Source: Desulfobaccales bacterium | GTDB lineage: Bacteria > Desulfobacterota > Desulfobaccia > Desulfobaccales > 0-14-0-80-60-11 | Length of the DNA: 48,836 nt | Assembly: GCA_041740935.1 (NCBI GenBank) | Contig: JBGSLA010000019.1 | Location: 1-48,836 of the forward strand | Direction: 5' to 3' | Shown here: piece after piece, positions 9,195 to 31,491 of the stretch | Layout of the letters: each line of letters opens with the position of its first letter | Position numbering within the stretch: the first letter of the stretch is position 1 | Notes under the pieces: model-generated | What the model was told of the DNA's origin: nothing | Databases searched by the model: none | What the model saw: only the letters and a program-made list of their open reading frames with translations | Program-made: the position numbers and the translations under genes

Positions 9195-9407
9195 GGGCTC
9201 GATTGTAGGGACTCGATTCATCGAGCCCTGGAAGGGTGCCAAGATTTGCGCGCCTGCGAAAAATTCCTTTTTCTCATTGAACTGCAACCCACGAAACGCC
9301 CAACATATTGATTATTTTTGTTAATTTTTACCGAAACCATCATGGCCGCAATCGGCCACCCCCGGCAATGAAAATCTTTTGTAGGGGCGGGGTAACCCCG
9401 CCCCTAC
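9195..9407. repeat. REP-like GC-rich palindromic hairpins
   Basis: GGGCTCGAT...ATCGAGCCC at 9195-9228. Near-perfect 27-nt palindrome GTAGGGGCGGGGTAACCCCGCCCCTAC at 9381-9407, flanked by ACCGAAA(A)CCAT repeats. Confidence 0.75.
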
Positions 9408-9514
9408 GGGTGGATTTTCACGGTAAAACCGAAAACCATATGAGCCGCTGCCACCGCCGGTGCAAGGAGAGAGCAGTACCCTGATCCATGGGACTGGGGC
9501 CGACTTGTTGTGCG

Positions 9515-10486
9515 TCAGCCGCCGAGGCTGACCATGGACCGGCCGGCATGGTGGGAAGAGGTCGAGGGAAATCCGGCTTTCATGAGCATGGCTTCCTGGA
9601 ACCGGGAACTCAAGAAGGCCGTATTGCGGCCCTGACGGAGAGGCTCTTTCAGATCGATCTCGGCATCGGTCAGCAGGCAGGGGCGCAACTTTCCGTCCGC
9701 GGTGAGGCGCAGGCGGTTGCAGGTGCGGCACCGGTGCCCGTTCAGGGGGCTGATGAAGCCCAATTCCCCCTGAAACCCCGGCGCCTTAAAAATTCGGGCC
9801 GGACCGGCGCTGGGCTCCCGGGTTGACGGCATAAGGGGCCCCAGCACCGCAAGCCGCCGCCGCACTTCGGACAGGGGCAAAAAATGGCGCTGCCACCATG
9901 CCTGGGACACGGTGGGCATCAGCTCGATGAAGCGCACCTGCCAGGGATGCTCCCGGGCGAGCCTGGCCACATCCAGCAGTTCATCGTCATTGACCCCCCG
10001 CAGGGCCACGCAATTTATTTTGAGCGGGGCAAAACCGAGAGACGTCGCCCGCTTAAGCCCTCTGAGCACCTCCGGCAAGTAATCCCCGCCGGTGATCTGC
10101 CGGTAGCGTTCCCGTCGCAGGGTGTCGAGGCTGACATTGAGATGCCGCAGACCCGTGTGGTAAAGAGCCGGCGCCAGTTCCCGGAGCAGCACGCCGTTGG
10201 TGGTCAGACAGACTTTGGTGATGCCGGGAACCTCATGCAGCTTGCCGAGAAAATCCACCAATGAACGGCGGAGGAGCGGTTCGCCGCCGGTAATCCGGAC
10301 CTTGGCAAGGCCCACCTCCCCGGCCACGGCCGCCAGGCGCAGCATTTCCTCATAACTCAGGAGTTCGCCGGCCGACAGTTTTTGCCAATCACGCCAATAG
10401 GTGCAGTACCGACAGCGCAGATTGCAGCGGTCGGTGACGGACAGGCGCAGGTAATTGATCCTGCGGGGGCCGGCTGCGGTTCCCAT
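9515..10486 (-). CDS. moaA: GTP 3',8-cyclase MoaA (radical SAM)
   Basis: 323 aa. INYLRLSVTDRCNLRCRYC motif and a C-terminal second Cys cluster CRTCNRLRLTADGKLRPCL. Confidence 0.9.
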   Translation of the reverse strand: MGTAAGPRRINYLRLSVTDRCNLRCRYCTYWRDWQKLSAGELLSYEEMLRLAAVAGEVGLAKVRITGGEPLLRRSLVDFLGKLHEVPGITKVCLTTNGVLLRELAPALYHTGLRHLNVSLDTLRRERYRQITGGDYLPEVLRGLKRATSLGFAPLKINCVALRGVNDDELLDVARLAREHPWQVRFIELMPTVSQAWWQRHFLPLSEVRRRLAVLGPLMPSTREPSAGPARIFKAPGFQGELGFISPLNGHRCRTCNRLRLTADGKLRPCLLTDAEIDLKEPLRQGRNTAFLSSRFQEAMLMKAGFPSTSSHHAGRSMVSLGG

Positions 10487-10489
10487 GAT

Positions 10490-11521
10490 TTAGGCGCCTT
10501 TGCCGAAGGGGCAATGGGGGTAAGCGCAATCCGGGCAGTCCCGGCACAGGCCCCCGTGTCCCAGGAGGGCCAGGTCCTTTTTGCCGAGGCGCTCCCCCGC
10601 CAGAATCCGGGGCAGCACCAAATCCAGCACGGTCACCGGATGGTGCAGGGCGCAGGCCGGCACGCCGAGCAGCGGCACCTCCCCCAGGTAGGCCACCAGG
10701 AACATGGCGCCGGGGAGGACCGCGGAGCCGTAATGCATTTCCGTGGCCCCGGCCAGGCGGATGCCGTGGCGGGTGACGTCGTCCGGGTCCACGCTCAGGC
10801 CGCCGGAGAGCAGCAGCAGGTCGCAGCCCTGGGCCAGATGGCTGCGAATGGTCCGGGCGATGGCCTGGGCGTCATCCGGTAAGAAATCCACTGCCGCCAC
10901 CGACGCCCCCAAGTCCTCGACCTTATTGGTGAGAATGGGCACGAAGCGGTCCTGGATGAGGCCGTGATAGATTTCGTTGCCCGTGATGATGAGGCTGGCT
11001 CGAGCCGCCCGCAGTCGCCCGACGGCAAGCAGGCCACCGCCGGCGCCGGCCAGGGCCACGGCCCGTTCAATGGGGGCCCGTTTCATCACCAGCGGGATGG
11101 CCCGGGTGGCCGCGACCTTTTCCCCTTTTTTCACCAGGGTATGGTTGTGCAGGCTGGCGCACATGACTTCATCCACCAGGTTGAAGGCGGCCAGGGCCGG
11201 GACATTCACCCGGAGCAGGCCGTCCCAGGCGGCGTGCAGGTTGATTTTGCCCTCCCGGGGGTTGTTTTCCCAGACCACGCCCTCTCCGGCCAGGGCGCCG
11301 GCCAGGAGCGCGGCGGCCTCATTTTCGTGGATTTCATCCTCCTCCAGATCCAAAACATAGAGGTGGTTCTTGCCCAGGCGCTGCAGACGGCAGAGGTCCT
11401 CTTCACAGAGGTTGTGGCCCTTGAGGAAGGCCGGGCCTTTGAACTCACCCGGGCGGATTTCAGTGATATCGTGGGCCAGGGTGTGCCCCACGGCGTCTTT
11501 GAGTTCGATGACTTTTTTCAT
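10490..11521 (-). CDS. Molybdopterin-binding (MoCF_biosynth-type) protein with Cys-rich C-terminus
   Basis: 343 aa. The central LLLSGGLSVDPDD block is typical of MoaB/MogA/MoeA-type molybdopterin-binding domains. C-terminal CRDCPDCAYPHCPFGKG. Confidence 0.65.
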   Translation of the reverse strand: MKKVIELKDAVGHTLAHDITEIRPGEFKGPAFLKGHNLCEEDLCRLQRLGKNHLYVLDLEEDEIHENEAAALLAGALAGEGVVWENNPREGKINLHAAWDGLLRVNVPALAAFNLVDEVMCASLHNHTLVKKGEKVAATRAIPLVMKRAPIERAVALAGAGGGLLAVGRLRAARASLIITGNEIYHGLIQDRFVPILTNKVEDLGASVAAVDFLPDDAQAIARTIRSHLAQGCDLLLLSGGLSVDPDDVTRHGIRLAGATEMHYGSAVLPGAMFLVAYLGEVPLLGVPACALHHPVTVLDLVLPRILAGERLGKKDLALLGHGGLCRDCPDCAYPHCPFGKGA

Positions 11522-12264
11522 GTCAGGCCTCGTAAGCGTCCCCTCGCCGCCGCCGGCCGGCGAAGGTCCTTAGCTGAAGCGGTTTGCGCCGGTATCCCGG
11601 CATAAGGGGACCAATCCATGTCCGGCCAGGCGATTTCCCGGGGTTTGCGAAAATAGGCCCCGTCGGCGCAGGGGCGGCAACAGGGGCGGCCCTCCACCAT
11701 AATTTCCCGGCCGTCCCGCACCACCTGGCCGCAGGCGGCGCAGGCCACCTGGCGTCGGGTGGGCCCGGGCAGGTCAAACTCGGAGAGATCCACCTCCACC
11801 GCCTGGACCCGGAACAGAGCGGCATCCGGCATAACCTTGTAGGCCAGGGTCTGTTGCCGCCGGCGATCCGGCTCCCCCGGGGCGTAGACCGCGGCCAGCT
11901 CCCGGGACTCCTCGGTGGAAATAATCCGCAAGCCCTGACCGGTCTCCAGGTTCACCAGGGTGGCGGCCATGATGCCGTAGTCCATGAACTTGAGGGAGCG
12001 CCGCCCCAGCTTGACGTTGGTCACATGGGCCACCGCGTCCCCGGTGCAGCGATCCATTTCCACAAACACGATGAGCCGTTTCAGTTGGGGCAAGGTGGGG
12101 GGCGCCTCAAAACCCAGGAGCCGCAGGCCCAACACGGCCAGCCTCACGCCCACCACCTGCCCCGGGCACAGATGACCGTGCGCGGCCACCGAGCCGGCCA
12201 GGAGTTCTTCAAAGTGTTCCGGCGTTATCTGCATGGCTTGCCATCCCTGTTTTGCGGTCCCCAC
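11518..12264 (-). CDS. FmdE-domain protein
   Basis: HGHLCPGQVVGVRLA motif plus a C-terminal zinc-ribbon-like CAACGQ...CCRPC. The start could instead be the Met at 12234. Confidence 0.7.
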   Translation of the reverse strand: MGTAKQGWQAMQITPEHFEELLAGSVAAHGHLCPGQVVGVRLAVLGLRLLGFEAPPTLPQLKRLIVFVEMDRCTGDAVAHVTNVKLGRRSLKFMDYGIMAATLVNLETGQGLRIISTEESRELAAVYAPGEPDRRRQQTLAYKVMPDAALFRVQAVEVDLSEFDLPGPTRRQVACAACGQVVRDGREIMVEGRPCCRPCADGAYFRKPREIAWPDMDWSPYAGIPAQTASAKDLRRPAAARGRLRGLT

Positions 12265-12276
12265 TTCGCCCGCAGA

Positions 12277-15200
12277 TCAAACTTTGACCAATTTGACCTG
12301 GCTTTGATAAAAGACGGCGCTGCCGCCGGTGAGGTCCACCAGTCCGGTGTTCTTGAGCACCGGGTCCACCCGCATGGCGGCGTTGGCGTGGACGCCGGTG
12401 GCCCGCCGGGGGTCTCCGGGAACCAGCACCCCGTCAATGACCACATCGCTGGAGCCGTAAGCCCAGTGGCCGCCCCCCAGGGAAAAGGCGATGACCCCGG
12501 GCCTTATGCCCTCGGTGATGCGGACCTGGCCGATCATGGGCTTCTGGTGGCCGGCGGCGAGATTCCAGGTACCTTCCTCGTTGGAAGGGGAGATTACTTT
12601 TACCCGGTCGCCATCGGCCAGCGCCAACCGCCTTGCGTCTGTGGGGGAAATGTCAATGGTGTTATAGGGGTACACGGCCTTGGTCCAGTAATTCCCCGGT
12701 GTCCGGGATTTGGTCTGGGTGATGTGTTTATAGGTGAGCAGGGTGAGGTCGTACCCCTTGGCCTCGTCATCCAGTTTGCGCCCCAAAACGTCCACCGGCC
12801 CCTCCATGAAGTGGCCATGGCCCACATAGGGCTTGCCGGTCATGGAGTTCTTGGTGGTTACAAAATTTTCCATGTAGATGCCCACCATCTTGCCATATTT
12901 GTTGGTCAGCTGGCCATTCTTGTAGGCTTTCTGGTACTCCTGGAAGCGGCCTCCCCGGTTCAGGACATAGACCACCTGGGGCCACCAGTCGTCGCCCACC
13001 ACCGCCCGCCAGCGCTTGGCGTCATAGACCGTGGGCGGCAGGTGTCGCCTGGCCTGTTCGAGGATTTTCAGTTCTTCGGGACCGGCCGCGGGCACCTTTT
13101 CGGAACCGTCGGGCTTGTCGCCGCAGGCGATGTTAGCCACCATGCGGAGATACATATCCTCTTCCCGCTTCAGATGGAGTCCGGGTCCGAAAGCGTTATC
13201 CCCGAAGCCCGGCAACTTCATCTTTTCGGCGATCCCCAGGACCAGGGACTCGGTGGACAGGGGCATCTTTTCACCGAAGACGGTGACGGTGTCGGTGAGG
13301 GGCGCCGCGGCCGGCTGGCGGAAAGGGGCCACCTTGGGGGTGACCGAAGGGTGCGAGCCGGAGAATTCCCAGCGCTCCAGGTACGTTATATCCGGGAAGA
13401 TATAGTCAGCATACATGGAAGTTTCGCCGATGACGATGTCTGAGGCAAAGATCAGGGGAACTTTCTTGGGATCGGACAAGATTTTTATGAGCTCATGCCC
13501 GGCGGGCAAGGCGTACACCGGCGAGGCCTGGTAGAACATCAGGGCCTTGATCGGGTAAGGATAAGCATCCCCCATGCTGGGGATGACCTCCTGATAAATG
13601 TCGCTGGAGAAGGGATACCAGGGCCGCTTGGCCGGGTAGCCCTTAAACAGGGTGGACTTTTCATACTTCTTGCCATGCCGGATGATGTCCACCCCCCAGG
13701 TCTTGATCTTGCCGGGATGGGTTATTAGGTCAAAAGGTTTGCCTTCTTTGCTGCCGTCGATGTTATAGGTGGTGGCCTTGGCCAGGCCGCCCTGCCAGTC
13801 GTGGTTGCCCAGGAGCACATTCAGGGTCATGAAGATGAGCACATTGTAGAACCCCGAGGTGTGCTGGGAGACGCCCCGGTGGATGTCGGCCACCGCCCTT
13901 TTGCCGTGATTGGTGAATTCCCGGGCCAGGTCGACCAGGTCCCGCTCCTGCACCCCTGCCAGTTGGGTCCATTCGGCCGGTGTTTGGGCGTTGGCGGCCT
14001 CCTTGTAAATCTGCAGGACGCTTTTAACCTTGTGGCCCTTTACTTCTGTATCTACCAGGAGGTCCCCTTCCACGGCGGCGGTTTCGCTGTTGGGGTCAAA
14101 GGGGACGGGCTGGCCGCCTTTCATGACCAGGAAGGGATCGAATTCCCACTCCCCCCCCTCTTTCATGGGACGCTTTTCCTTGGGGAGGCCGATATCCGAA
14201 CCTCTGAGAAAAATCCCAGGGGTGCCGTCCGGGTTGATCTTTACCAGCCAGGCCGTTTGGGTCCAGGTGGGCTCGTTGTCGGCCATGGCCGCGGCCTTGT
14301 TGGCGTTGGCCAGATAGCGGGCGTCGTAGCGCTGGTTCTCGATGATCCATTGCATCAGGCCCATACCCACGGCCGCGACCCCGTTGGACTTGATGGGCAG
14401 CCACCTCCAGGCCCGGGCCGCGGTTTTGGAACAGCGGGGATCCACCACCGCAATGCGCATGGTGCCGTCCACCAGGCCCTCGGTCACCTTCTGGGCCCTG
14501 AGGGGCGGCCCATAATTGGCCTCGTAAGGATTGGCCCCCACAAAGAGGATGAACTCGGGGTTGCCGGTGTCCGCCTGCCAGTAGAACTTGCTGCCTTTGG
14601 TAAACTTCCCTTCCACGAACTGGTCGCTCATGGCCTTGCAGGTGAAGTACAGCGACCCCTGGCAGACAGTGGTGTGGCCGTGGGCGTTCACCGAGCCCAG
14701 GGCCGCCACCAGCCGCTTCAAAATATCAGACCGGCCCCCTTTCAGGCGGCCCCAATTAAAGCAGAACTGATTGTTTTTAGGGCCAAGATCCGGGTGGTCC
14801 GGGTCAATGAGATACTTTAGATTGTCCTGGTGTTTGGCCTTGAACGCGGCCAGTTCCATCTTTTTGGCAGACACCAGCTCGGCGTCTGCCGCCATCTCCT
14901 TGGCTATCTTGCTGTCCCGGAGGAGGCAAATATCCTTCAAGCCCTCCACCTGGCCCTCGCCGAAGAGGTTGCCGCCGTTGACGATCTCGGTAATGGCCTG
15001 GTCGAAGGGAATAGTCTGCCACTTGTTTTCCCCCCGTTTGCCGGCCCGTTTGAGCACCTTGACCAGGCGGTAGGGGTCATACAGGGCCTGGATGCCCGCC
15101 TGGCCCTTGGGGCAGAGGGAGCCTTCCATGGTGGCGGCCTCGGCAATGGGGGTCTTGTAGGGAATCTGCGGCGTCATGGTCCAGGGACTATAGGGGTTGC

Positions 15201-15495
15201 CGTCGATTTTGGCCGCCAGCCCATCCACGAATTTCACCTTGATGCCGCAGTTGGTGTTGCACTGCTGGCAGACCGACAGAATTTGATTTTCCGGGCGGTA
15301 GTGCACATAAGCGTCGCCCACGTCCAGAGCCGTCCAATCGGCGGCGCTCATGGCTTGCGCAGCCCGGGCCAGATAGTGGGACGCAGCCAGTGAGCCCCCC
15401 AGCAAGGCCGAACACTTGAGAAAACCCCGCCGATCTATTTTGGCCTCGATAAGTTCTCTCATCTCCTGAGTGGGGTTGGTATTCGTCTTAGACAT
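12277..15495 (-). CDS. Tat-exported molybdopterin (bis-PGD) oxidoreductase catalytic subunit, TtrA-like
   Basis: 1072 aa. Twin-arginine signal DRRGFLKCSALLGG. FS0 motif CQQCNTNC...C. The blocks KRAGKRGENKWQTIPFDQAITEIVNGGNLFGEGQVEGL and MQWIIENQRYDARYL match my recollection of Salmonella TtrA. Confidence 0.85.
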   Translation of the reverse strand: MSKTNTNPTQEMRELIEAKIDRRGFLKCSALLGGSLAASHYLARAAQAMSAADWTALDVGDAYVHYRPENQILSVCQQCNTNCGIKVKFVDGLAAKIDGNPYSPWTMTPQIPYKTPIAEAATMEGSLCPKGQAGIQALYDPYRLVKVLKRAGKRGENKWQTIPFDQAITEIVNGGNLFGEGQVEGLKDICLLRDSKIAKEMAADAELVSAKKMELAAFKAKHQDNLKYLIDPDHPDLGPKNNQFCFNWGRLKGGRSDILKRLVAALGSVNAHGHTTVCQGSLYFTCKAMSDQFVEGKFTKGSKFYWQADTGNPEFILFVGANPYEANYGPPLRAQKVTEGLVDGTMRIAVVDPRCSKTAARAWRWLPIKSNGVAAVGMGLMQWIIENQRYDARYLANANKAAAMADNEPTWTQTAWLVKINPDGTPGIFLRGSDIGLPKEKRPMKEGGEWEFDPFLVMKGGQPVPFDPNSETAAVEGDLLVDTEVKGHKVKSVLQIYKEAANAQTPAEWTQLAGVQERDLVDLAREFTNHGKRAVADIHRGVSQHTSGFYNVLIFMTLNVLLGNHDWQGGLAKATTYNIDGSKEGKPFDLITHPGKIKTWGVDIIRHGKKYEKSTLFKGYPAKRPWYPFSSDIYQEVIPSMGDAYPYPIKALMFYQASPVYALPAGHELIKILSDPKKVPLIFASDIVIGETSMYADYIFPDITYLERWEFSGSHPSVTPKVAPFRQPAAAPLTDTVTVFGEKMPLSTESLVLGIAEKMKLPGFGDNAFGPGLHLKREEDMYLRMVANIACGDKPDGSEKVPAAGPEELKILEQARRHLPPTVYDAKRWRAVVGDDWWPQVVYVLNRGGRFQEYQKAYKNGQLTNKYGKMVGIYMENFVTTKNSMTGKPYVGHGHFMEGPVDVLGRKLDDEAKGYDLTLLTYKHITQTKSRTPGNYWTKAVYPYNTIDISPTDARRLALADGDRVKVISPSNEEGTWNLAAGHQKPMIGQVRITEGIRPGVIAFSLGGGHWAYGSSDVVIDGVLVPGDPRRATGVHANAAMRVDPVLKNTGLVDLTGGSAVFYQSQVKLVKV

Positions 15496-16723
15496 GCTTC
15501 GCTTCTCCTTTCCCCGCGCTGATCACCGGCAGCCACCGGGAACCCAACAGAAAGGCCAGCAATCCCAGGGAGAAAACCCAGAGGCTGACCAGCCATTCGG
15601 TCAGGTTGGGAAAATACTCCGTGGTGCGCAGGCGGTGATGATAAAAGGTGGCTTCCAGCCCCTCCAGCTTGTACACCGCCTGATCCGGGATGACAAAGTT
15701 CAGGCGCACCGCGATGAAGGTGATGATAATCAGAAAACAGGCCCAGGCCACCACCTTGGCATTTTGATGATGCACCGCCAGGAGGTACAAGGGAATGGCG
15801 CTGCCGATGAGCAGATGGACGATCCAGAACACCCACCAATACGGCCCGAACACGATAATGTCCAGGCTGGCTTTGGTAATGGGAAGCCCGGTGCGGTAGC
15901 CCACAAAAAACTGCAGCAACTGCAAAAAGAGAAAAACCACCAGGAGGAAGCGCACCACGTGCCCCAGGTAATGCACCAGCTCATCGTCAGCCTTAAAGAT
16001 ATAGGTGAGAAAGGTTATGAGGGCCCCACCCGACAGCAGCGCCGTGACAATGAACAACAGGGGCGTGAGGGCGCCGTTCCACAGGGGGCGGTTGAGCAGA
16101 ATGGCGAAAATGGCGCCGTTGATGCCGTAAAAGATCAGCCCCACGGGCAGACTCAGGATGGACAGAAAGCGCACCCGCCTGTGGTCCGCCTCCCGGTCCG
16201 CCTCGGTGAACCCGGTTTTCCCGAAGGACAGGAATCTATAGAGCCCCCTGGCCGGTCGTCCCTCCTCCTGGGACCACTTCACCAGGTCCTCCCGGAGCAG
16301 GAAGTAACACTCCAGCAGATAGATGAGGATCATGGCGTTGGTGAAGACCACCATCCAGAAAATCATGGAATACCAGCCCGGGCTGAGGAGAAAGCGGTAG
16401 GCCCGGAAGAAGTGCCCCAGGTCAAAGCTGATGATGATCACCTCGCAGGAGATGGCCACCAGCACCGTGAAGGCCGATAACGGGCCGATGGGGGCGAAAA
16501 TTTTCACCCGAAAGACATAGGTGAGGATGGTGATGAGAAAGGCTCCGGCGGTCAGGCCCAGGAAAAAGAGATACACCGCCACCCACAATCCCCAGGGGAC
16601 GTAGGACCCCAAGTCGGTGGCCCCTTTTCCGAACCACATGGCCTGAAACACCCCCCAAAAACCTATCACCAGGCCTATGATCGCCAGGGTCAGCAACGTT
16701 TTGTAATAGCGCTCGGTTGGCAT
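15488..16723 (-). CDS. NrfD/PsrC-family integral membrane quinone-interacting subunit (TtrC-like)
   Basis: 411 aa and very hydrophobic, with about 10 predicted helices. It overlaps the catalytic subunit start by 8 nt. Confidence 0.8.
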   Translation of the reverse strand: MPTERYYKTLLTLAIIGLVIGFWGVFQAMWFGKGATDLGSYVPWGLWVAVYLFFLGLTAGAFLITILTYVFRVKIFAPIGPLSAFTVLVAISCEVIIISFDLGHFFRAYRFLLSPGWYSMIFWMVVFTNAMILIYLLECYFLLREDLVKWSQEEGRPARGLYRFLSFGKTGFTEADREADHRRVRFLSILSLPVGLIFYGINGAIFAILLNRPLWNGALTPLLFIVTALLSGGALITFLTYIFKADDELVHYLGHVVRFLLVVFLFLQLLQFFVGYRTGLPITKASLDIIVFGPYWWVFWIVHLLIGSAIPLYLLAVHHQNAKVVAWACFLIIITFIAVRLNFVIPDQAVYKLEGLEATFYHHRLRTTEYFPNLTEWLVSLWVFSLGLLAFLLGSRWLPVISAGKGEAKHV

Positions 16724-16740
16724 ACTTCTTTCCCCTTCCC

Positions 16741-17496
16741 TTATTTCAGGTAAGACACGCTCGGCTGGGTGCCCAATTCTTCCTTGAGCCGAAAAATCCG
16801 GGGGGAACCCATATTCTCAAAAACCAGACTTTGGGGATCGGTGCGGTCCCCGAAAATGGTGGCCCGCCCCACACAACTGGTGACGCAGGCCGGCAGCATG
16901 CCCACCTTCAGACGATGCAGACAGAAGTGGCATTTGCGGGCGTTGCCCATGGGCGAGCTGCCTTTGGCCCGGTTGGGCCATTGCTGGCCGTATTCCGCCG
17001 CGGGGCGCAGTTCATAGCCGTCCCGGGCGGCCTGGCGGCCGAACAGGGTGCCCGGCTCCTCCGGGGTGTCGGCGGTGTACCACTCCCCGAAGTCGGAGGT
17101 GCGGGCCGCGTAGGGGCAGGCCACCAGGCAATACCGGCAGCCGATGCAGCGGTTGTAGTCCACGATCACCGCCCCCTGCTCGGTCTTCCAGGTGGCGGTG
17201 ACCGGGCAGACCTTGGTGCAGGGGGGATTCTGGCAATGGACGCAGGGTCGCGGCGTAAAACGCCGCCGCACCGAGGGGTAATGCCCCACCTCCTCCTCCA
17301 GCACCACCCGGTACACCACCCCCGGGGGCAGTTTGTTCTCCGCCACGCAGCTGATGGTGCAGGCATGACAGCCGATACACTTGGCGAGGTCGATAACCAT
17401 GCCCCATCTGATGTCCTGGGGCTTTTTGTTGAGAGCCCGTTTCAGGTCCCGCTGCATGCGGACTAACAGGTCCTCCTGAGGCAAATCCTTTGACAT
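16741..17496 (-). CDS. Four-cluster 4Fe-4S ferredoxin subunit (TtrB/PsrB/DmsB-like)
   Basis: 251 aa with [31 protein letters not shown] and CHFC...C motifs. Confidence 0.85.
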
Positions 17497-17516
17497 AACG
17501 CTCTCCCTTTCCTGGA

Positions 17517-18371
17517 CTAAACTTTCTCCCCTTCCGGCCTGGCCGCGCGGTCGTTCCCCGATCTCATCAAGCCCAGGGCCCGGGTAAGTTCCAGGGCCAC
17601 GCCCATCCCCGCCTTAACCTCTTTGCCCATCAGGCGGAAAGGCAGGCCCAGGGGGCCCACCGGCCGGGCCGCGTCCAGATCCACCCTGGCCGGCACGTCC
17701 GTCAGCCGGTCCAGAAACTCGATGACCCGGGGGTCGGCGAATTTTTTGACCATGCCGTGCATGCGCACAAAGCCGTCGCCTATGGCCTCGATATCCTCTG
17801 GCTGATACACCGAGGCCAGCTTGGCGTACATATCCACCACAGCCTCCACCGAGCGGAGAACCACAGGGTCGGCGAACTTCTTGACTATGCCGTGCATGCG
17901 CACGAAACCGTCGCCGATTTCGTCGATGTCCTCAGGGGAATAGGCCGACGCGAGCTTGCTGTACATGGTGAGGATGGCCTGGTTGATGCGGAAGATGCCC
18001 TTCTGCTCCAGGTCGTCCAGCTTGTCGATGATATGGGGCACCGCGATCTTCAGGAGGGGCTCCACATCATGCCACCAGTCGATGAGGTTCTCCATCTGCT
18101 CCAGGGACCAGGCGAGGTGCCGGAAGCTCAACAGCAGTCTTTTCAGGAGAACAACGACGTCTTCCAGCTGAAAGCCGGTCTCCACCTCCGCCAAGCCGTC
18201 AGTGAGGAGTTTGGCCCCGGGACCCATGAGGAGGGCAAAATCCCGTCCCAGATCGGACAGGCTTTCCATGGGATCGGCCATCTTGTTCACCTGTGCTTCC
18301 AGGCGGGCCAGACGATCCAATTTCTCCTCTATTCTCGCCAAACGCTCCTGGATCAGGCCTTCGTCGGACAT
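17517..18371 (-). CDS. DUF1641-like protein with an internal tandem duplication
   Basis: Start at ATG 18371 behind an AAGGAG RBS (MSDEGLIQ...). N-terminal coiled-coil. Two 45-aa repeats of the form ...[26 protein letters not shown].... It sits next to an SQR/NDH-2-like flavoprotein, as is typical for DUF1641. Confidence 0.6.
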
Positions 18372-19642
18372 GTCAATCTCCTTTGCCTGAGCGGCAGTTC
18401 CACATCGGGAGACAGGATGCCCCGCACCTTGCCGGCCATGACGAACTGGGATTCCAGGGGCAAATGGCTGCCTTTCAGCATCAGATTGTAATAAACCCAA
18501 CGGAACATCATCTTGCCCATGTAGTTGGTAAAACTCTCTCCCAACAGATCAAAGGGCCCCAGGCCCGGGAAGGGAAACTTCCCCGGCAGGGGTTCAATCT
18601 TAAAATTGAAATCCAGCAGCGACCCTTTTTCGTAGCCGGTGACCACATAGCAGGTGGCGTGACCGTCATATTTCGGCAGCGGCGGGTGCCCCTCGATCTC
18701 CCGCTGGAGATTCTCCGCCACCACATCCGCCTCATAATGGGCCACCGCCCCGGCCTTGGAGGTGGGCAGGTTGGCCGCGTCGCCGATGACATAAATATTT
18801 TCAAAATTTTTGGCCCGCAGGGTATGGTGATCGGTGTCCACATAACCCATGGGATCGCCCATGTCGCTGTCGATGACATATTGGGCCCCGAAATTGGGGG
18901 GGATGGAGATGAGCAGGTCGTAGTTCACCTCCCGGCAGTCATAGCCCACGATCACCTTGCGGTTCGGGTCCACGCTGGCCAACTGGAAATTTGGGGTTAC
19001 CTTAATGTTTTTGGTCTCGCACAGCTGGCCCAAAATCCTGGAAGCCACCGGTTTGGTGAAGACCCCGGGGAGGGGGGTGGCGAGCTCGATTTCCACGTGG
19101 TCCCTGAGGCCATTGACCGAGAAAAACCAGTCCGCCATAAAGATGAATTCCAGGGGCGCCACCGGACACTTGAAGGGCAGTTCGGCGATGTTCAGCACCA
19201 CCCGCCCCTTGTCGAAGTATTTGAGCTTCTCCCGCAGGGCCAGGGCCCCTTCCAGGGTGTAAAAGTTGTGGATGTCCTGCCCCCAGCCCTCCATGAGGCC
19301 TTCCACCTCGGAGGGCACAATGCGGCAGCCCGAGGCGATGACCAGGAAGTCATAGGGAAAGGTGTATTGCTTGGTCTTGACCTGCCTTTTGTCCGGATCC
19401 ACCCCTTCAATTTCATCCAGCACGAAGTTGACCCCGGGCGGCACAAACTTGGTCCTGGGCTTGACGCAATCCTCCCTGTTGTAGATGCCGAAGGGAATGA
19501 ACAGCCAGCCGGGTTGGTAGTGGTGCTCCCAATCCCGGTCAATGACGGTGATGTCCCATTCCCGCTCCGGCAGCTGCTGCCGCATCTTGGTGGCAATGAT
19601 GGTGCCTCCGGTGCCGTGACCCAAAATAACCAACCTTTTCAT
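18353..19642 (-). CDS. FAD-dependent pyridine nucleotide-disulfide oxidoreductase, sulfide:quinone reductase-like
   Basis: 429 aa. N-terminal Rossmann motif RLVILGHGTGG. A second dinucleotide-fold block is present. The overall layout is SQR/NDH-2-like. Confidence 0.7.
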   Translation of the reverse strand: MKRLVILGHGTGGTIIATKMRQQLPEREWDITVIDRDWEHHYQPGWLFIPFGIYNREDCVKPRTKFVPPGVNFVLDEIEGVDPDKRQVKTKQYTFPYDFLVIASGCRIVPSEVEGLMEGWGQDIHNFYTLEGALALREKLKYFDKGRVVLNIAELPFKCPVAPLEFIFMADWFFSVNGLRDHVEIELATPLPGVFTKPVASRILGQLCETKNIKVTPNFQLASVDPNRKVIVGYDCREVNYDLLISIPPNFGAQYVIDSDMGDPMGYVDTDHHTLRAKNFENIYVIGDAANLPTSKAGAVAHYEADVVAENLQREIEGHPPLPKYDGHATCYVVTGYEKGSLLDFNFKIEPLPGKFPFPGLGPFDLLGESFTNYMGKMMFRWVYYNLMLKGSHLPLESQFVMAGKVRGILSPDVELPLRQRRLTCPTKA

Positions 19643-20040
19643 GATCCCACCTCTCTTCCCGTTGGGGATTCGGTTTCAGACAGATTCTCCGCGATGGTTT
19701 TCAGCCAATACCCCAGTTCTTCCGTGTCCAACGGCTTCACCAAACAGGCATAAAGGGAGCCGATGACGTCTTCCCGTCCCGGGTGGTAGGCCAGACTGGA
19801 TATTCCCAATATATGCAGCCGGGGATGGCTCCTCCGCAGGGTCCGGAAAAACTGCTTGTCGGCCGCTATGGTGTCCAGGTCCAGGATGACCGCGACGTCT
19901 GAGGCCTCCTGAAGGGTGACCTGCAAGTCCTCCAGGGAGGTCAGCAGCCTGGCGGCATAGCGCCTGGCGCCCAGGAGTCCGCACAATTGTTTGCCGTCCT
20001 GCCGATCTCCAGTCACCATAAGCACGAGAGGCTTGCGCAT
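19639..20040 (-). CDS. Stand-alone receiver (REC)-like domain protein
   Basis: 133 aa from ATG 20040. VILDLD (candidate phospho-Asp), ILGISS and LVKPL follow the receiver layout, but the N-terminal acidic pair is TGD rather than DD. ATGA overlap with the next gene. Confidence 0.55.
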   Translation of the reverse strand: MRKPLVLMVTGDRQDGKQLCGLLGARRYAARLLTSLEDLQVTLQEASDVAVILDLDTIAADKQFFRTLRRSHPRLHILGISSLAYHPGREDVIGSLYACLVKPLDTEELGYWLKTIAENLSETESPTGREVGS

Positions 20041-20091
20041 ATTGATCCCTGGTCCTCGTTGCAAATCTTAATATCTTGCAAAAAAGGTAAG

Positions 20092-20106
20092 GCAATTTCT
20101 GTGCCT
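20092..20106 (-). promoter_or_regulatory. Sigma54-type -24/-12 promoter
   Basis: The minus strand reads AGGCAC-AGAAA-TTGCC, with the consensus GG-N10-GC spacing. It lies about 50-65 nt upstream of ATG 20040, and a sigma54 activator gene is adjacent. Confidence 0.55.
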
Positions 20107-20382
20107 ATTAGGTCAACACATTGAAATATCATGTAAAATAGTTTTTAACAGATTGAGATCAGGAAGAGCTGCGGTCTTAGGAGAGCCGATTACAGGCTGG
20201 AAAAAGATTAACTTATTGATTTAACAAGATATATTATTGTTATTTTTGTGAACCGCCTCTCCCCCGGCTGCGGACATCCTTAAGACACATCATCACGATA
20301 TTTAAGAATTTTAAAGAGATAGCCATGTCCGAAATATGGACACGGCAACAAAGCAGGCGCACACAGCGGGTGGAGTGAGGCT

Positions 20383-22575
20383 TTAATGGGTGGTGGGGTC
20401 GGAATTGGGGACCTTGTGCCGCTTCAAGATGGCGTACACCGTGCTGCGGCTTATACCTAAGCGCTTGGCGGTGAGCTTTTTATTGCCCCCGGTTTCTTTG
20501 AGGATTTCCAGCAGAGTCTGCAACTCCCGTTCTTCCATGGTGGGGGGCGACATGGGCGCCTGCTGCCGCAGGGCCGCAGGGAAATCCCAGGCCTCCAGTT
20601 GGCTGCCCTTGGCCAGGACCACGGCATGTTCCAGGGAATTCTCCAGCTCCCGGACATTTCCGGGCCAGGGATATTCCAGGAGGAGGCGCATGGCCTCGGA
20701 GCTTATATCGGTGATGTCTTTGCGCTGTTCTGCGGCGAAGCGGCGCAAAAAGTGGAGGGCCAGCAGGGGGATGTCGTTTTTGCGCTCCCGGAGCGACGGC
20801 AGCTGCACGGGGATGACCTTGAGGCGATACAGGAGGTCCTCCCGAAAATTGCCCCGCTCCACTTCCTGCAACAGGTCTTTGTGGGTGGCGGCCAGGAGGC
20901 GCACGTCCACGCTCAGCGTCTTTTCGCCCCCCACCCGCTCAAACTTGCGGCTCTGCAAGACCCTGAGGAGCTTAATCTGGGCGGTGGGCGGCATTTCCCC
21001 CACTTCATCCAAGAAAACGGTGCCTCCCTGGGCCAATTCGAAGCGCCCCGGCTTCTGGCGGATGGCCCCGGTGAAGGCGCCCTTCTCATGTCCGAAAAGT
21101 TCACTCTCCAACAGCGCGGCGGGATAGGCCGAACAATTAATGACCATGAAAGGTTTGTCCTGTCGGGGACTGAACCGGTGGATGGCCCTGGCCACCAACT
21201 CCTTACCGGTGCCGCTCTCCCCTTGAATCAGGACGGTGGCGTCGGTGGGCGCCACGTCCTCGATGAGTTTGTATATGGTTTGCATCTTGGGGTCTCTGCC
21301 GATGAGCTCACCAAACCCGGCCGCGGCTTCCACCCGGCCCCTGAGACCGCCCACCTCCTCCTCGTGGACCATGGCCCGCCCCAGAGCCCCGGCATTCTGA
21401 TTCAGGATGAGCCCCAGCCACTGTATTTTCTCGGGATGGCAGTCGCAATTCCCCGGACAGGCGACCACCGCAGCGCCCACAATCTGGCCGTCAGTAAAGG
21501 GAATGTGGGCCTGACGTTCCATGGCGGGGAAACTTTCCGGGACCAGGGGTGATCTCAGGAGATTCTTCCGGGTAAAACCCGGTTTGGTCAGCCTCTCCAA
21601 AGTTGCCTGGGCGTTTTTGATCGTCTCGGGATCTCTCAAAGAAACCAGGCCGTGGTCCGAGATGATAAAAAGGGTATCCCGGGCGGCATTGAAGGCCAAA
21701 AAAGATACATGGGAGCAGGGCACCTGGTCTTTGAGCTTTTCCAAGAGAAAGGCGCCCATTTCCTTCAAGGTCCCCAGGGCGCTGATTTCCCGGACAATCT
21801 GGCAGGCGGCCCGGGCCTGTCCATAAGCCCGCTCCAACTCCTGGGTCTGCTCCTCCAGGCGACGGGTGTAATCTTCCTGGCGGGCCACCATCTGGTTGAA
21901 AGAGCCGGCCAACCGGGCTATTTCAGCCTGTCCTTGCACGGGCACCCGCACCTCCGTCATCCCCTGGTCTATTTGCCGGGTGGCCTCCACCAGGGTGGCC
22001 AGGGGTCGGGTGATGCGCCTCACAAAGAAAAGGCCGCCCACCATGGCAGCCAGGAGAATGCCCAGGGTAAGCAGGCCGATCTGCAGCCACAGGGACAGCA
22101 CCTGCCGCCGGTAATAGGATTCCGAGAAACCGACCCGCAGGACTCCGGCTTTGCCCTCGAATATCGGCCAGGCCGCGTCCAGAAAAGGTTCTCCGCCTTT
22201 GGAGGCGATGGCTCGAAGTTCAGGCTTCTCCACCGAACCGGGTTGACTGGCCGCCACCAGACCGGCCGGCACCCCTTTTTTAAAGGTGTGGGCCAGGATG
22301 CGGCCTTCCCTGACCACAAACAGGTAGCCCAGGCCCGGATTGCTATGCATTTGCTGATCCAGCAGCTTTTGGAGACCCACCCTGTCGTTGATGAGAATCC
22401 GGTCGGCGGCCTCCAGGGCCACGGCATGGGCCAGGTTTTCCGCCTGGCTCGACAGGGTGGCCTGCAAGGCAGCGCTGTAACGTTGGGTGACCAGGAAGGC
22501 GATGGCCAGACCGCTGAACACCACCAAAAAGGCGATGGCCGCCAAGAGACTACTCTTGAGGGTGCGAAACCCCAT
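20383..22575 (-). CDS. Membrane-bound sigma54-dependent transcriptional activator (periplasmic domain-HAMP-GAF-like-AAA+-Fis HTH), no receiver domain
   Basis: 730 aa. Two TM segments bracket a periplasmic domain of about 150 aa. HAMP-like segment follows. [15 protein letters not shown] (Walker A), [15 protein letters not shown] (GAFTGA motif), and C-terminal [19 protein letters not shown]. Confidence 0.9.
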
Positions 22576-23503
22576 GACTCTCTTCCTTGATCCGGGCCAG
22601 CCCCTGATATTTCAACCGGATGGCCTCATACCACGCCTCCTGGAGGGGGACAAAGCGGTCGATGAATAGTTCCTGGAGAATTTTCTCCCCTTCCGGGTCC
22701 TGGTGCATGCTGAAAAGCACCTGTTGCAGGCGCTCATGATCGTCCGGCGGCAGCCGGCCGGAGGTGACCAGGGGAGGGATGCCGAAGGGCTGGGACTTTC
22801 TGATTATTTTGGTGCGGGCGGTGAACTCCGGCTTTTTTTCCTGATAATATTCATAGATCAGACTATCCACCGCGGCGCCATCCACCAATTCCCGGGAGAC
22901 CGCCAGGATGGCGTTGTCGTGACTATAGGTATAGATGGTCTGGCTGAAAAAGGTTTCCGGTCGCTCCTGCAGGTCGGCCAGCCAGGCGGTGGGGATGAGC
23001 TTGCCGGTATTGGAATGGGGATCAGTGAAGGCAAAGGTGCGCCCTCGCAGATCTTCCAGCCTGTTGTAGGGACTGTCCTTATTGACGATGAGGAGGGAGT
23101 GGTAGGAAGGGCTGCCGTGGACCACCGGCACGGCCAGGGGCTTAAAGCCAAGGGCCTCCCGGGCGGTGGCGTAAGGGCCGGCGCAGATAAAGGCCACATC
23201 GATGTCGCCCCGCCGGAGGAGTTCATTGATTTCAGCGTAGGTTTGGCGCTGGATGAATTCCAGGTCTTTTCCGGCCCGGCGGCTTAAATATTCCAGGAGT
23301 CGGCGGTACTGGTCGAAGGTTTCCTTGGGGGAAATCATGGCCGCCACCGCCACCCGCAGGGTCGGCTGCCGGGAAGGCTGCTCTTCGGATTGGGCCGCGG
23401 GCACAATCTTGTCGAAATCCACCACCAGCCGGTCCCCATCCCCCCCGCACCCGGCGGCGATGAGCACCCCGACCATGATCAGCATTAACCCAGATATTCT
23501 CAT
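22550..23503 (-). CDS. PhnD-type (phosphonate-binding-like) periplasmic solute-binding protein
   Basis: 317 aa. Signal peptide with lipobox-like [29 protein letters not shown]...[10 protein letters not shown] is typical of the PhnD/Phosphonate-bd family. Overlaps the activator gene by 26 nt. Confidence 0.7.
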
Positions 23504-23811: not shown

Positions 23812-24204
23812 TTAAGCTTCGGGATGGTTCGCCGTCTTTTTCTCCTGATAGTTTTGAATGGCCAGGGCCAGGGCGTCGGCTCCCAGGTTGGAGCAGTGCA
23901 TTTTTTGGGGAGGCAGGCCGCCCAGGGCCTCGGCCACCGCCTTTTTGGTGATTTTCCGGGCTTCGGCCAGGGTCTTGCCCTTGGCCAGAGCGCTTACCAG
24001 GTCGGAGACCGCGATGGCCGCCACGCAGCCAAAGGTCTGGAACTTGACGTCCTGAATGATGTCGTCTTTGACCTTGATATAAAAGGTCATCATGTCGCCG
24101 CAGGTGGGGTTGCCCACTTCACCGACGCCGTCGGCGTCCTCGATGACCCCGGCGTGCTGCGGATTGTTGAAATGGTCCATGACGATATTAGAATACATGG
24201 TCAA
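23812..24204 (-). CDS. nifU: Fe-S cluster scaffold protein, NifU N-terminal/IscU type
   Basis: 130 aa. Contains NPTCGDMMTFYIKV, FQTFGCVAAIA and HCSNLGADAL, the three conserved Cys motifs. Confidence 0.9.
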   Translation of the reverse strand: MTMYSNIVMDHFNNPQHAGVIEDADGVGEVGNPTCGDMMTFYIKVKDDIIQDVKFQTFGCVAAIAVSDLVSALAKGKTLAEARKITKKAVAEALGGLPPQKMHCSNLGADALALAIQNYQEKKTANHPEA

Positions 24205-24628
24205 ACTCCTTGCTGTTCATGGCCTGGGCTTTGTTGACCAGGTCAGCCAGGGTGATGGCCTGCAGCCGCTCGAACATGGCTTCCGAAGCTTCCTTCCAGA
24301 TGAGGCGGGTGGGGCAGCTGTCGGCCCGTTGGCAAACCCCGGCGTGGTCACTGCATTCCACCAGGCTGGTGCCCTCTTCCAGGAGCGCCACGATTTCCCC
24401 CAGGGTAATCTCCCCGGGCGGCCTGGTTAAAATGTGCCCGCCTTTGGGTCCCCGCACACTCTCGATATAGCGGGCCTTTTTCAAAGGGATGATTATCTGC
24501 TCCAGGTATTTCACCGAGACGTCCTGGCGTTTGGCAATGTCCCCCAGTTGGATGGGGCCCTGATTGTAATGCTGGGCCATGTCCAACATCAATCGCGTGC
24601 CGTAGCGGCTGCGGGTGGACAGCTTCAT
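24188..24628 (-). CDS. Rrf2-family (IscR-like) transcriptional regulator
   Basis: Start at ATG 24628 (MKLSTRSRYGTRLMLDMA...). wHTH region plus a C-terminal CSDHAGVCQRADSCP Cys cluster. Confidence 0.85.
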   Translation of the reverse strand: MKLSTRSRYGTRLMLDMAQHYNQGPIQLGDIAKRQDVSVKYLEQIIIPLKKARYIESVRGPKGGHILTRPPGEITLGEIVALLEEGTSLVECSDHAGVCQRADSCPTRLIWKEASEAMFERLQAITLADLVNKAQAMNSKEFDHVF

Positions 24629-24630
24629 GC

Positions 24631-25818: not shown

Positions 25819-25827
25819 GATTTTGCC

Positions 25828-26085
25828 TCAATGAACCTTTTTGATATAGAGTTTATAAAGGTCCTCGTCCTCCTGGTCCTCACAGATACCCACGAATTCC
25901 TGACCATGCTTGGCGCACCAGGCCGGGATGTCCTCCAGGGCGCCGTCGTAGTCGGTGACAATTTCCAACACCTGCCCTGTATGCAGATCCTTGAGGAATT
26001 CAGCGGGTTCCAGGAGGTGCATGGGACACACCCGGTACACCAGATCAGCCGTGGCGTCGGCCTTGCACTCATGCAGAAACCTCAT
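25828..26085 (-). CDS. TusA/SirA-like sulfur carrier protein
   Basis: 85 aa. CPMHLLEP corresponds to the TusA CPxP active-site motif. DIPAWCAKHGQEF resembles the conserved C-terminal block. Confidence 0.7.
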   Translation of the reverse strand: MRFLHECKADATADLVYRVCPMHLLEPAEFLKDLHTGQVLEIVTDYDGALEDIPAWCAKHGQEFVGICEDQEDEDLYKLYIKKVH

Positions 26086-26215
26086 GGTCTTATCTCCATT
26101 TTTGTATTATATATTATTTAAATATAGAATAAAGCCGATAAAAAATTTGTCAAGGGAGCCTCCGGAAAATTATGCCTTTTCAAGGGGAAATCCCTTGAGA
26201 TGGCCGGAGGCGCCT

Positions 26216-26626: not shown

Positions 26627-26673
26627 GGTGCAGTCCTCTTTTTTAAAAAGCTCCAGGTAACCGCGGTTTTTTT

Positions 26674-27882: not shown

Positions 27883-28111
27883 CGGTTTCTCCTTCCGCAA
27901 TTTTCGCCATCACCGGTAATCCTGTGGATATTCAGGCTGTTGGGATCTGCCAGCCCTGTGGTAAAATAAATCCAAAATTTTGCGTTATTCATATTGATTT
28001 ATTCTATATAATATTGATATATATTAAACAACAAAAAAAGAAGCTGTAAACCGTAAGAAACCGGCCCTGCCGAAAGTTTTTTTGACCCGGGGGCCAAGGA
28101 GGACGGGGAAA

Positions 28112-29107
<996 letters not shown>

Positions 29108-29112
29108 CCTCC

Positions 29113-30038: not shown

Positions 30039-30040
30039 AA

Positions 30041-30520: not shown

Positions 30521-30572
30521 CCTGAGCAGTTTTTCTCCCCATCAGTAATGCGATAATTTTATTGACATATAA

Positions 30573-31479: not shown

Positions 31480-31491
31480 AAGGAGAGTAAC

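Follow-up and report, generated by a model that had tools for sequence, protein, structure and literature searches.

A Ttr-family molybdoenzyme operon of a Desulfobaccales bacterium, with an ArrX-like sensor gene upstream and a type III SQR-DUF1641 pair inside, as a candidate sulfide-fed arsenate reductase system

We analyzed a 48,836-nucleotide stretch of the genome of a Desulfobaccales bacterium (contig JBGSLA010000019.1 of assembly GCA_041740935.1), referred to here as the window, which carries on its minus strand a nine-gene operon (9515-20040) built around a molybdoenzyme resembling tetrathionate reductase (TtrBCA) and, upstream of it, a pair of regulatory genes (20383-23503). Judged from sequence, we favor by a little the reading that the locus encodes a respiratory arsenate reductase of the Ttr type that is induced by arsenate and supplied with electrons from sulfide via menaquinone; the part of this statement that concerns the arsenic substrate is in itself fairly probable. 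The most informative element of the locus is the ArrX-like sensor encoded by the regulatory pair, which lies outside the coordinates covered by a first-pass annotation of this DNA and was not reported there. That annotation had left the substrate open among tetrathionate, selenate and polysulfide; arsenate now becomes the leading candidate, because the sensor belongs to the ArrX/AioX family and because the neighborhoods of related operons are rich in genes for the arsenic-resistance proteins Acr3 and ArsC.

The sensor gene (22550-23503, minus strand) encodes a 317-residue lipoprotein with the signal LIAAGC and an assigned PhnD-like binding-protein fold (Pfam Phosphonate-bd, 234 bits). Among PDB sequences it matched ArrX, the arsenate sensor of Chrysiogenes arsenatis, with E=5e-63 (216 bits, 42.6% identity over 249 residues), followed by the arsenite sensor AioX (E=1e-40, 140 bits), PtxB (E=3e-19, 73 bits) and PhnD (E=1e-14, 58 bits); by these bit scores it is nearer to ArrX and AioX than to the latter two, transport-type proteins. 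Seven ligand residues are listed for AioX (Tyr88, Cys106, Tyr131, Ser161, Ser163, His192 and Asp210 in AioX numbering; PMC5908839). In a HMMER alignment to the AioX chains six of the seven are identical in the window sensor, the family-specific Cys among them, and Ser163 is replaced by Thr. The ORF (open reading frame) map and Pfam showed no ABC transporter genes near the sensor gene in the window, and in about 29 related loci it likewise directly precedes the activator gene. The sensor shares only 24% identity with the periplasmic domain of a TtrS encoded in a plasmid ttr locus; a TtrS-like identity, which would favor tetrathionate, was considered and dropped, as ArrX and AioX match far better. 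The model TIGR04553, 'putative selenate ABC transporter', reached 77 bits against a cut-off of 250. These comparisons place the sensor in the ArrX/AioX-type arsenic-oxyanion family, and we infer that its ligand is arsenate. In vitro, ArrX bound arsenate with a dissociation constant (Kd) of 1 uM and phosphate weakly, and showed no binding of tetrathionate, thiosulfate, selenate or any other ion tried; arsenite is the ligand of AioX and ArxX, antimonite was bound by none of ArrX, AioX and ArxX, and each characterized sensor bound the substrate of its neighboring molybdoenzyme (PMC5908839). In a Chloroflexota locus (L077, Caldilineales) the genes after that of an ArrX-like protein encode a histidine kinase with an sCache_3_2-HAMP module and a LuxR-type regulator; the sensor thus accompanies the enzyme in different phyla, with differing output modules.

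In the window, the sensor gene overlaps the start of a gene for a membrane-bound, one-component sigma-54 activator (20383-22575, minus strand; 730 residues). Pfam domains and hydrophobic segments give the order transmembrane segment, periplasmic sCache_3_2 domain, transmembrane segment, HAMP, about 190 residues without a family, AAA+ and HTH_8, so that the Cache domain is flanked by two hydrophobic segments. The interval between HAMP and AAA+ (residues 233-423) matched no Pfam family. It holds a Cys-rich patch, CPGNCDC, and may be a GAF/PAS-like domain or what is left of a kinase domain. Downstream, a terminator-like hairpin (20322-20346, minus strand; a nine-pair stem, then a T-rich tail) divides the regulatory genes from the structural operon. 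It is followed by a sigma-54-type -24/-12 promoter element, AGGCACAGAAATTGCC (20091-20106, minus strand), with the start codon of the first operon gene 52 nt downstream. The element has the TGGCAC/TTGC character of such promoters, an adjoining activator gene, and conservation: 24 of 30 related loci have a GG-N10-GC element in the interval from the activator gene to the opening gene of the operon (the receiver gene described below, or the iron-sulfur subunit gene where a receiver went undetected), compared with a chance expectation of about 0.03 per locus. Since such an element arises by chance only about once per 16 kb, its recurrence is not a coincidence. A repeat search of the promoter region for activator binding sites gave nothing convincing.

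The nine consecutive ORFs, all on the minus strand, encode a receiver-fold (REC-like) protein (19639-20040; 133 residues), a type III sulfide:quinone oxidoreductase (SQR; 18353-19642; NCBIfam NF049943), a DUF1641-family protein (17517-18371; 284 residues, with a weak PF07849 match), a four-cluster, ferredoxin-like iron-sulfur (FeS) subunit (16741-17496; Pfam Fer4_11), an NrfD-family membrane anchor (15488-16723; Pfam NrfD, 117 bits), a catalytic subunit of the type that binds Mo or W through two pyranopterin guanine dinucleotides (bisPGD) (12277-15495; 1072 residues with the Pfam domains Fe4S4, Molybdopterin and Molydop_binding), an FmdE-domain protein (11518-12264; Pfam FmdE, 95 bits), a MoCF_biosynth-domain protein (10490-11521; 343 residues, Pfam 72 bits) and MoaA (9515-10486; TIGR02666). 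From the coordinates, the junctions are overlaps of 4, 19, 8 and 4 nt and gaps of 20, 17, 12 and 3 nt. At the far end, a GC-rich 15-bp palindrome (9378-9410) between the convergent MoaA and glycogen phosphorylase genes is a probable bidirectional terminator. The nine-gene order, tight junctions and single sigma-54-driven unit proposed in the first-pass annotation are borne out by these data: every ORF was found, the domains were mostly confirmed by profiles, the promoter is conserved, and putative terminators stand at both boundaries. That the nine genes form one sigma-54-driven transcription unit is supported at the level of sequence.

The catalytic subunit is assigned by its profile matches and motifs to the TtrA family, within the broad TtrA/SrdA/alternative arsenate reductase lineage, as a predicted Cys-coordinated, periplasmic enzyme. 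TtrA (NF011567) is its best-scoring NCBIfam model at 463 bits, below the 1750-bit cut-off and well ahead of PhsA (181 bits), DmsA and ArrA (NF041714; 111 bits, cut-off 1600), and the match to Shewanella ArrA in the PDB (E=2.5e-18) extends over 120 residues only. With the E. coli plasmid protein named TtrA by the Prokaryotic Genome Annotation Pipeline (PGAP) it is collinear from residue 70 to 1059 at 30% identity, and its Mo-ligand Cys aligns with the Cys of TtrA; the twin-arginine translocation (Tat) motif DRRGFLK and the cluster motif CxxCxxxC can both be read. The FeS subunit, which has no Tat motif of its own, scored 174 bits with TtrB, 176 with DsrO and 150 with ArrB, all below the NCBIfam cut-offs, and a hydropathy scan of the NrfD anchor gave about 10 hydrophobic segments. 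The recognition of a TtrBCA-like, Tat-exported molybdoenzyme in this DNA is upheld by these results. With the TtrBCA-TtrSR system of Salmonella and E. coli the locus shares the B-C-A gene order, Tat export, the Cys ligand, an N-terminal 4Fe-4S motif and a sensor domain of PhnD-like type; unlike that system it has no adjoining TtrS or TtrR, and has instead the ArrX-like sensor and sigma-54 activator, and its catalytic subunit, so far below the TtrA cut-off, falls in a separate clade.

Hundreds of relatives of the catalytic subunit were found at 55-87% identity, mostly in uncultured Thermodesulfobacteriota (Syntrophobacterales, Desulfobaccales, Desulfobacterales, Desulfovibrionales and Desulfarculus), with others in NC10, Rokubacteria, Chloroflexota, Bipolaricaulota and Ignavibacteriales. 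We placed the subunit in a neighbor-joining tree, a rough distance tree without support values, whose input comprised close relatives, representatives of 50% clusters, the E. coli plasmid TtrA, an enzyme from a Citrobacter arsenatis plasmid and a second Ttr-family enzyme. The clade of the window subunit holds together and stands apart from the canonical TtrA clade, formed by the E. coli plasmid TtrA and its representatives at 44-51% identity. The phylogeny that had been proposed for this subunit is realized here in part, with canonical TtrA as its reference. It had also been held that the locus would lose its interest if the subunit nested within a characterized clade that shares the nine-gene context; the clade in which it falls is biochemically uncharacterized and lies outside canonical TtrA. 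The broad family as such has already been named TtrA/SrdA/alternative arsenate reductase (PMC10100899, PMC7331816).

Variants of the enzyme were seen in several relatives. Seven loci (L003, L005, L007, L015, L055, L102 and L107) have two tandem NrfD-type genes before the catalytic subunit gene, each product about 60-65% identical to the single NrfD of the window. A groundwater metagenome-assembled genome (L025) carries, 3 kb downstream of its first copy, a second, paralogous FeS and Ttr-like pair (15747-19805) that is 50% identical to the window enzyme. The plasmid collection yielded canonical TtrA, a Citrobacter enzyme within an ars island, and haloarchaeal and Azospirillum relatives. The Citrobacter case (L081, Citrobacter arsenatis plasmid NZ_CP037863, 28794-33598) is a B-C-A Ttr-family cluster between arsRDABC and further arsC and phosphatase genes, its catalytic subunit annotated 'molybdopterin-dependent oxidoreductase' and its FeS subunit DsrO; similar enterobacterial plasmids, conjugative and of the IncFII type, share the arrangement. 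It looks like another unrecognized arsenic-linked Ttr-type enzyme, from a clade other than that of the window.

The gene neighborhoods of the closest homologs, a comparison that the first-pass annotation had called for, were examined in 80 genome loci, taking as close relatives those with at least 63% identity and enough flanking sequence. The layout proved recurrent, in the order binding protein, activator, promoter, REC, FeS, one or two NrfD, catalytic subunit, FmdE, MoCF and MoaA. Among close relatives the binding protein and the activator are each present in 27 of 39, REC in 24 of 39, FmdE in 23 of 42, MoCF in 28 of 42 and MoaA in 12 of 42; by these counts the receiver and cofactor genes are typical of the clade and not specific to the window. 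Acr3 and/or an ArsC of the low-molecular-weight-phosphatase (LMWP) type is encoded within 10 kb in 13 of the 80 loci, where we estimate that, with one or two ars operons per genome, chance would give well under one locus in 80. Among these 13 loci are 8 of the 12 close relatives without the binding protein.

Ttr-type enzymes have been linked to arsenate before. The enzyme of Pyrobaculum aerophilum (PAE1265) is an arsenate-induced reductase candidate, and the Ttr-type gene of Melioribacter roseus (MROS_1076) is arsenate-induced and lies behind genes for ArrTSR (binding protein, kinase and regulator) and arsRPCB (PMC5492636). The window resembles these systems in having a catalytic subunit of the TtrA and not the ArrA family, FeS and membrane partners, a PhnD-like sensor gene upstream, and arsenic-resistance genes near members of its clade (PMC5492636); the evidence for PAE1265 and MROS_1076 is transcript induction only, and the likeness is one of family. 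Their regulators are a kinase and a response regulator, whereas in the window a Cache-HAMP module is fused to the sigma-54 ATPase and the receiver is separate, and neither an SQR-DUF1641 pair nor an FmdE/MoCF/MoaA set, both present in the window, has been described for them. As in the AioXSR, ArxXSR and ArrXSR systems (PMC5908839), a binding protein is the first component, the output is sigma-54-dependent and the regulatory genes adjoin the molybdoenzyme that they control; unlike those systems, the locus has no histidine kinase, its sCache_3_2-HAMP module being joined to the AAA+ domain and its receiver encoded by the gene that opens the operon. Alternative arsenate reductases of the Ttr type, controlled by XSR-type systems, are already known. 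Undescribed are the kinase-less Cache-HAMP sigma-54 activator with a separate receiver, the pairing of a type III SQR (with selenocysteine or Cys) with DUF1641, and the joining of this donor module to the reductase operon.

The SQR-like flavoprotein seen in the first-pass annotation scores 662 bits with the model NF049943 ('type III SQR, selenoprotein subtype'), above its cut-off of 525, over profile positions 1-405 of 406, and matches human SQOR at E=1e-48. The motif given for this subtype is HxxU (PMC13188914); the window protein keeps the position in its full-length match but has Cys331 (HATC; codon 18650-18652) in place of selenocysteine. Among relatives, which include L003, L015, L019, L083-L085 and most of L086-L165, position 331 is an in-frame stop in 32 of 39 loci and Cys in 7, and gene callers split the stop-bearing genes into 330- and 93-residue products. 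These stops fit the selenocysteine of the HxxU motif, with the window SQR as a Cys variant. For its partner, the DUF1641 label is a probable one, drawn from homologs: the window copy scores 16 bits with PF07849 (E=0.011), below the gathering score of 21, while 25 of 30 homologs that are 59-79% identical to it match at E<=0.01 (best 6e-8), and homologs at 70-80% identity are annotated DUF1641/YjgD. The protein is all-helical and has an internal tandem duplication of about 45 residues (residues about 135-168 and 180-213). The duplicated region has a weak DUF7528 match in all 30 homologs, and some homologs, of about 330 residues, may hold a third copy of the repeat. Sequence and profile searches of the PDB with the DUF1641 protein returned designed coiled-coil proteins only and did not find HucM, ForE or Ncp. 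Neither protein of the pair has a signal peptide or transmembrane segment, and both are predicted, from their likeness to the characterized complexes, to be cytoplasmic.

The DUF1641 proteins HucM, ForE and Ncp (YjlC) form tubes that serve soluble enzymes as scaffolds and bring them menaquinone out of the membrane, and Ndh-Ncp is reported in Bacillota only (PMC13524794, PMC8808070). In Ndh-Ncp, ForCE and Huc, as in the window, the gene for a soluble quinone-reducing enzyme adjoins a DUF1641 gene (PMC13524794), and SQR and the NDH-2 of Ndh-Ncp are sisters within the two-dinucleotide-binding-domain flavoprotein superfamily. By analogy, the window protein is a probable menaquinone-carrying scaffold for SQR. 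It differs from the known cases in that the partner is a type III SQR and not NDH-2, formate dehydrogenase or hydrogenase, that hosts of the window type are Gram-negative anaerobes, where Ndh-Ncp is confined to Bacillota, that the DUF1641 protein is longer (284 residues) and internally duplicated, and that the pairing is known here from genes alone. In the literature searched we found no paper that pairs SQR with DUF1641.

A metagenome scan seeded with the DUF1641 alignment added 80 loci. SQR lies directly upstream of DUF1641 in all 46 loci with enough sequence, and the FeS gene of the reductase follows DUF1641 in 19 of 45 (16 of 23 where DUF1641 is at least 60% identical to that of the window, 3 of 22 otherwise). 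Among the genome loci, only L003, L015 and L019 have the pair between REC and FeS. In L039 and L058 the SQR gene comes after that of the catalytic subunit, and in L038 it is found upstream, on the opposite strand. The complete layout with its regulators recurs in metagenome loci L087, L102 and L107. The pair is found beside ArsR and Acr3 genes in L083 and L039, with ArsC as a further neighbor in both and thioredoxin, DsbD, ArsP and methyltransferase genes in L083. In L094 (1235-9451) and L105, SQR-DUF1641 precedes a different Ttr-family enzyme (954 residues, 39% identical, 549 bits with the TtrA model) that comes with FeS and membrane subunits of its own and with a TorD-like chaperone. An FmdE-MoCF-MoaA trio like that of the window follows at 63-78% identity, and the arrangement suggests a common operon chassis in which the reductase has been exchanged. 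The pair is a portable two-gene module that has repeatedly been joined to Ttr-family quinol oxidases, from two clades of enzyme and in three or more arrangements; within the reductase clade of the window it is inserted in one sub-lineage. The coupling of SQR and DUF1641 to this operon, which had been singled out as unusual, is real, and its oddity is lessened by the portability of the module and the recurrence of the whole nine-gene layout.

The product of the first operon gene gave no Pfam, NCBIfam or PDB sequence match, not even PF00072 at E<=10. Its AlphaFold model, built from a 37-homolog alignment, is a CheY-like (beta-alpha)5 fold with a predicted local distance difference test score (pLDDT) of 89.5, and the top 50 Foldseek hits are almost all receiver domains, with query-normalized template-modeling scores of 0.60-0.78. 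Asp54/Asp56, Ser81 and Lys102-Pro103 are conserved in the homolog alignment, and of the N-terminal acidic pair a single, variable Asp is left. Homologs are annotated as NtrC-family by the Joint Genome Institute (JGI), and all but one of the 24 close relatives with REC also have the sigma-54 activator at the coverage thresholds used. The model identifies the protein as a sequence-divergent, stand-alone receiver-fold protein. A receiver without a nearby kinase had been noted at the outset as an unusual feature; the fold is as proposed, no kinase is encoded nearby, and the frequency of the protein in close relatives makes it an ordinary feature.

A similar division applies to the FmdE/MoCF/MoaA trio, which had been taken as a dedicated set for the molybdenum cofactor (Moco) and which is co-located as described, at frequencies among close relatives that remove its peculiarity. 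MoaA scores 323 bits with TIGR02666 (cut-off 284), which identifies it as the GTP 3',8-cyclase of the first step of molybdopterin synthesis. The MoCF-domain protein is not a MoeA or MogA equivalog: NCBIfam scores are far below cut-off, the best domain model reaching 55 bits where 85 are needed, and in the PDB it has weak matches to CinA and Mog only. The FmdE-domain protein has no NCBIfam match; it ends in a zinc-ribbon-like CxxC...CxxC tail, matches PDB 2gvi at E=1e-4, and possibly acts in cofactor or metal handling. By curated cut-offs, only MoaA is a bona fide Moco-synthesis enzyme, and FmdE and MoCF are domain-level calls. No paper that links FmdE to tetrathionate reductase was found in the literature searched.

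These elements can be assembled into a mechanism. The periplasmic ArrX-family lipoprotein would bind arsenate and, once loaded, signal to the sCache_3_2 domain of the membrane activator, which would then fire the conserved promoter at 20091-20106 and give a single transcript of about 10.6 kb, up to the palindrome at 9378-9410. The TtrA-family subunit, the four-cluster ferredoxin and the NrfD anchor have the architecture of a menaquinol:acceptor oxidoreductase facing the periplasm; its likeliest acceptor would be arsenate, reduced to arsenite, and the 'alternative', Ttr-type arsenate reductase would thereby have a counterpart in bacteria. In the cytoplasm, the type III SQR would oxidize sulfide and reduce menaquinone brought to it by its DUF1641 partner, if the adjoining genes encode a complex analogous to Ndh-Ncp, ForCE and Huc. 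Electrons would then pass from sulfide through menaquinone to arsenate, with both ends of the chain encoded in one operon, and, as the half-reactions would lie on opposite sides of the membrane, a proton-motive redox loop would be possible. The product of the first gene, a detached receiver of NtrC type, is probably a feedback modulator of the activator, and MoaA and the MoCF- and FmdE-domain proteins may raise or specialize the cofactor supply upon induction.

Several observations weigh against a sulfide-fed arsenate reductase. The ligand residues of the AioX family did not by themselves set specificity for arsenite or arsenate (PMC5908839), and ArrXSR-like genes lie upstream of a MopB enzyme annotated as the sulfur reductase SreABC in a Methanoperedens element (PMC13444090), on account of which membership of the sensor family is no proof of its ligand. 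The binding protein is present in only 1 of 13 remoter clade members (below 63% identity), and the Ignavibacteriales locus L080 has no ArrX-like gene within 10 kb; a link to Melioribacter by way of L080 was for that reason abandoned and left to the literature only. The tree, from which SrdA, PAE1265 and MROS_1076 were left out, sets the clade apart from canonical TtrA only, and the clade consists of enzymes known from sequence alone, none of them purified or genetically tested. On the donor side, the window copy of DUF1641 scores below the Pfam threshold, its AlphaFold monomer model is poor (pLDDT 42, 30-sequence alignment), and its role as tube or scaffold is drawn from family membership and analogy. 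Moreover, SQR-DUF1641 is also found by itself in other, unrelated surroundings (L084, L085 and L127-L165) and could serve here in detoxification, not electron donation.

This last point leads to the alternative with the greatest remaining weight, which is compatible with any reductase substrate and concerns the role of the SQR only: the pair may be an independent, sulfide-detoxifying passenger cassette behind a strong inducible promoter. Its self-contained occurrence speaks for this, as does the lack of the pair in most close relatives of the reductase operon. The repeated joining to Ttr-family operons, in several arrangements and two enzyme clades, speaks against it, as do the reductase genes that follow in 16 of the 23 loci with DUF1641 at least 60% identical to the window copy, and junctions of overlaps or gaps of at most 20 nt, which imply coupled expression; we regard a mere passenger as unlikely, though worth keeping in view. 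The alternatives for the substrate, with any of which this one could coexist, are weaker. The enzyme might reduce a sulfur compound (tetrathionate, thiosulfate or polysulfide), with the sensor recognizing a sulfur oxyanion and SQR-DUF1641 recycling sulfide or sulfur. TtrA is after all the best curated model and aligns collinearly, TtrS also has a PhnD-like periplasmic domain, 24% identical to the window sensor, an SQR is natural in an operon devoted to sulfur chemistry, the hosts are sulfate reducers and syntrophs, and the SreABC-annotated enzyme has ArrXSR-like genes beside it. Yet the subunit reaches 463 of the 1750 bits required of TtrA and falls outside the canonical clade, the sensor resembles ArrX (216 bits) far more than TtrS and keeps the arsenic-family Cys and other ligand residues, tetrathionate and thiosulfate were not bound by ArrX (PMC5908839), and the Acr3/ArsC neighbors in 13 of 80 loci would be left unexplained. 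On these grounds a sulfur substrate is improbable.

A respiratory reductase of the SrdBCA type for selenate or selenite, or for antimonate or tellurate, is less probable again. It would share the B-C-A order and the broad family with SrdA (PMC10100899), in a catalytically versatile family, and could appeal to the weak TIGR04553 match of the sensor and to the selenoprotein subtype of the SQR; but the sensor matches ArrX much more strongly than TIGR04553, ArrX did not bind selenate and none of ArrX, AioX and ArxX bound antimonite (PMC5908839), the recurrent neighbors are arsenic-resistance and not selenium genes, and the selenocysteine of the SQR family reflects selenoprotein-rich hosts, the window copy having Cys. 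Least probable is an Arx-like anaerobic arsenite oxidase with arsenite and sulfide both as electron donors, for which it can be said that AioX and ArxX sense arsenite (PMC5908839) and that the sensor comparison left out ArxX, and against which stand the better match of the sensor to ArrX than to AioX (216 and 140 bits), the fact that all characterized members of the TtrA-family lineage are reductases (PMC7331816), the menaquinone expected in these hosts, which on general bioenergetic grounds arsenite does not favorably reduce, and the lack of an oxidant-side partner in the operon. We continue to favor arsenate as the substrate.

Elsewhere in the window, three further clusters were noted. A sulfur amino-acid cluster (24188-33477) encodes an Rrf2 regulator, a class-V aminotransferase resembling cysteine desulfurase, the homocysteine-synthesis protein HcyBio, a PALP enzyme and a TauE/SafE sulfite exporter. 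The genes at 33609-40521 encode an AcrB-type pump of the resistance-nodulation-division (RND) family (1040 residues), an HlyD-type adaptor, two Metal_resist (CpxP/Spy-like) proteins and a DUF4405 membrane protein, which together look like a metal or envelope-stress island. At 44860-48767 lie genes for a DsbD-like membrane protein with a weak ArsG match, an ArsP_1 permease and an ArsC-like protein of the low-molecular-weight-phosphatase type (TIGR02691, 127 bits, cut-off 174), possibly an arsenic-resistance cluster about 25 kb from the operon, with the window ending inside or just past it.

Arsenic mobilization in aquifers and sediments is usually tracked by arrA. If the clade reduces arsenate, such surveys overlook a major group of organisms that respire it, and the public label 'tetrathionate reductase' for clade members is wrong. 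Sulfide-driven arsenate reduction is known physiologically and poorly explained, and an SQR joined to the reductase suggests a genetic basis for it. The regulatory layout would show a three-component arsenic sensor that has been rewired in nature into a sigma-54 activator without a kinase, and the SQR-DUF1641 pairing would extend the principle of the quinone-carrying scaffold to sulfide oxidation in Gram-negative anaerobes. In its fullest form the proposal is a complete, self-contained sulfide:arsenate chain, in which a cytoplasmic type III SQR, with selenocysteine or Cys, is mounted on a DUF1641 menaquinone tube and feeds a periplasmic Ttr-type arsenate reductase, and which is controlled by an ArrX-type sensor acting on a kinase-less Cache-HAMP sigma-54 activator with a detached receiver; we put this forward as a tentative idea that is rather doubtful in its entirety. 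If true, DUF1641 complexes would gain a fourth class, with SQR as partner for the first time and for the first time in hosts other than Gram-positive and aerobic ones, and many genes annotated as 'tetrathionate reductase' in sulfate reducers and syntrophs would be unrecognized arsenate reductases.

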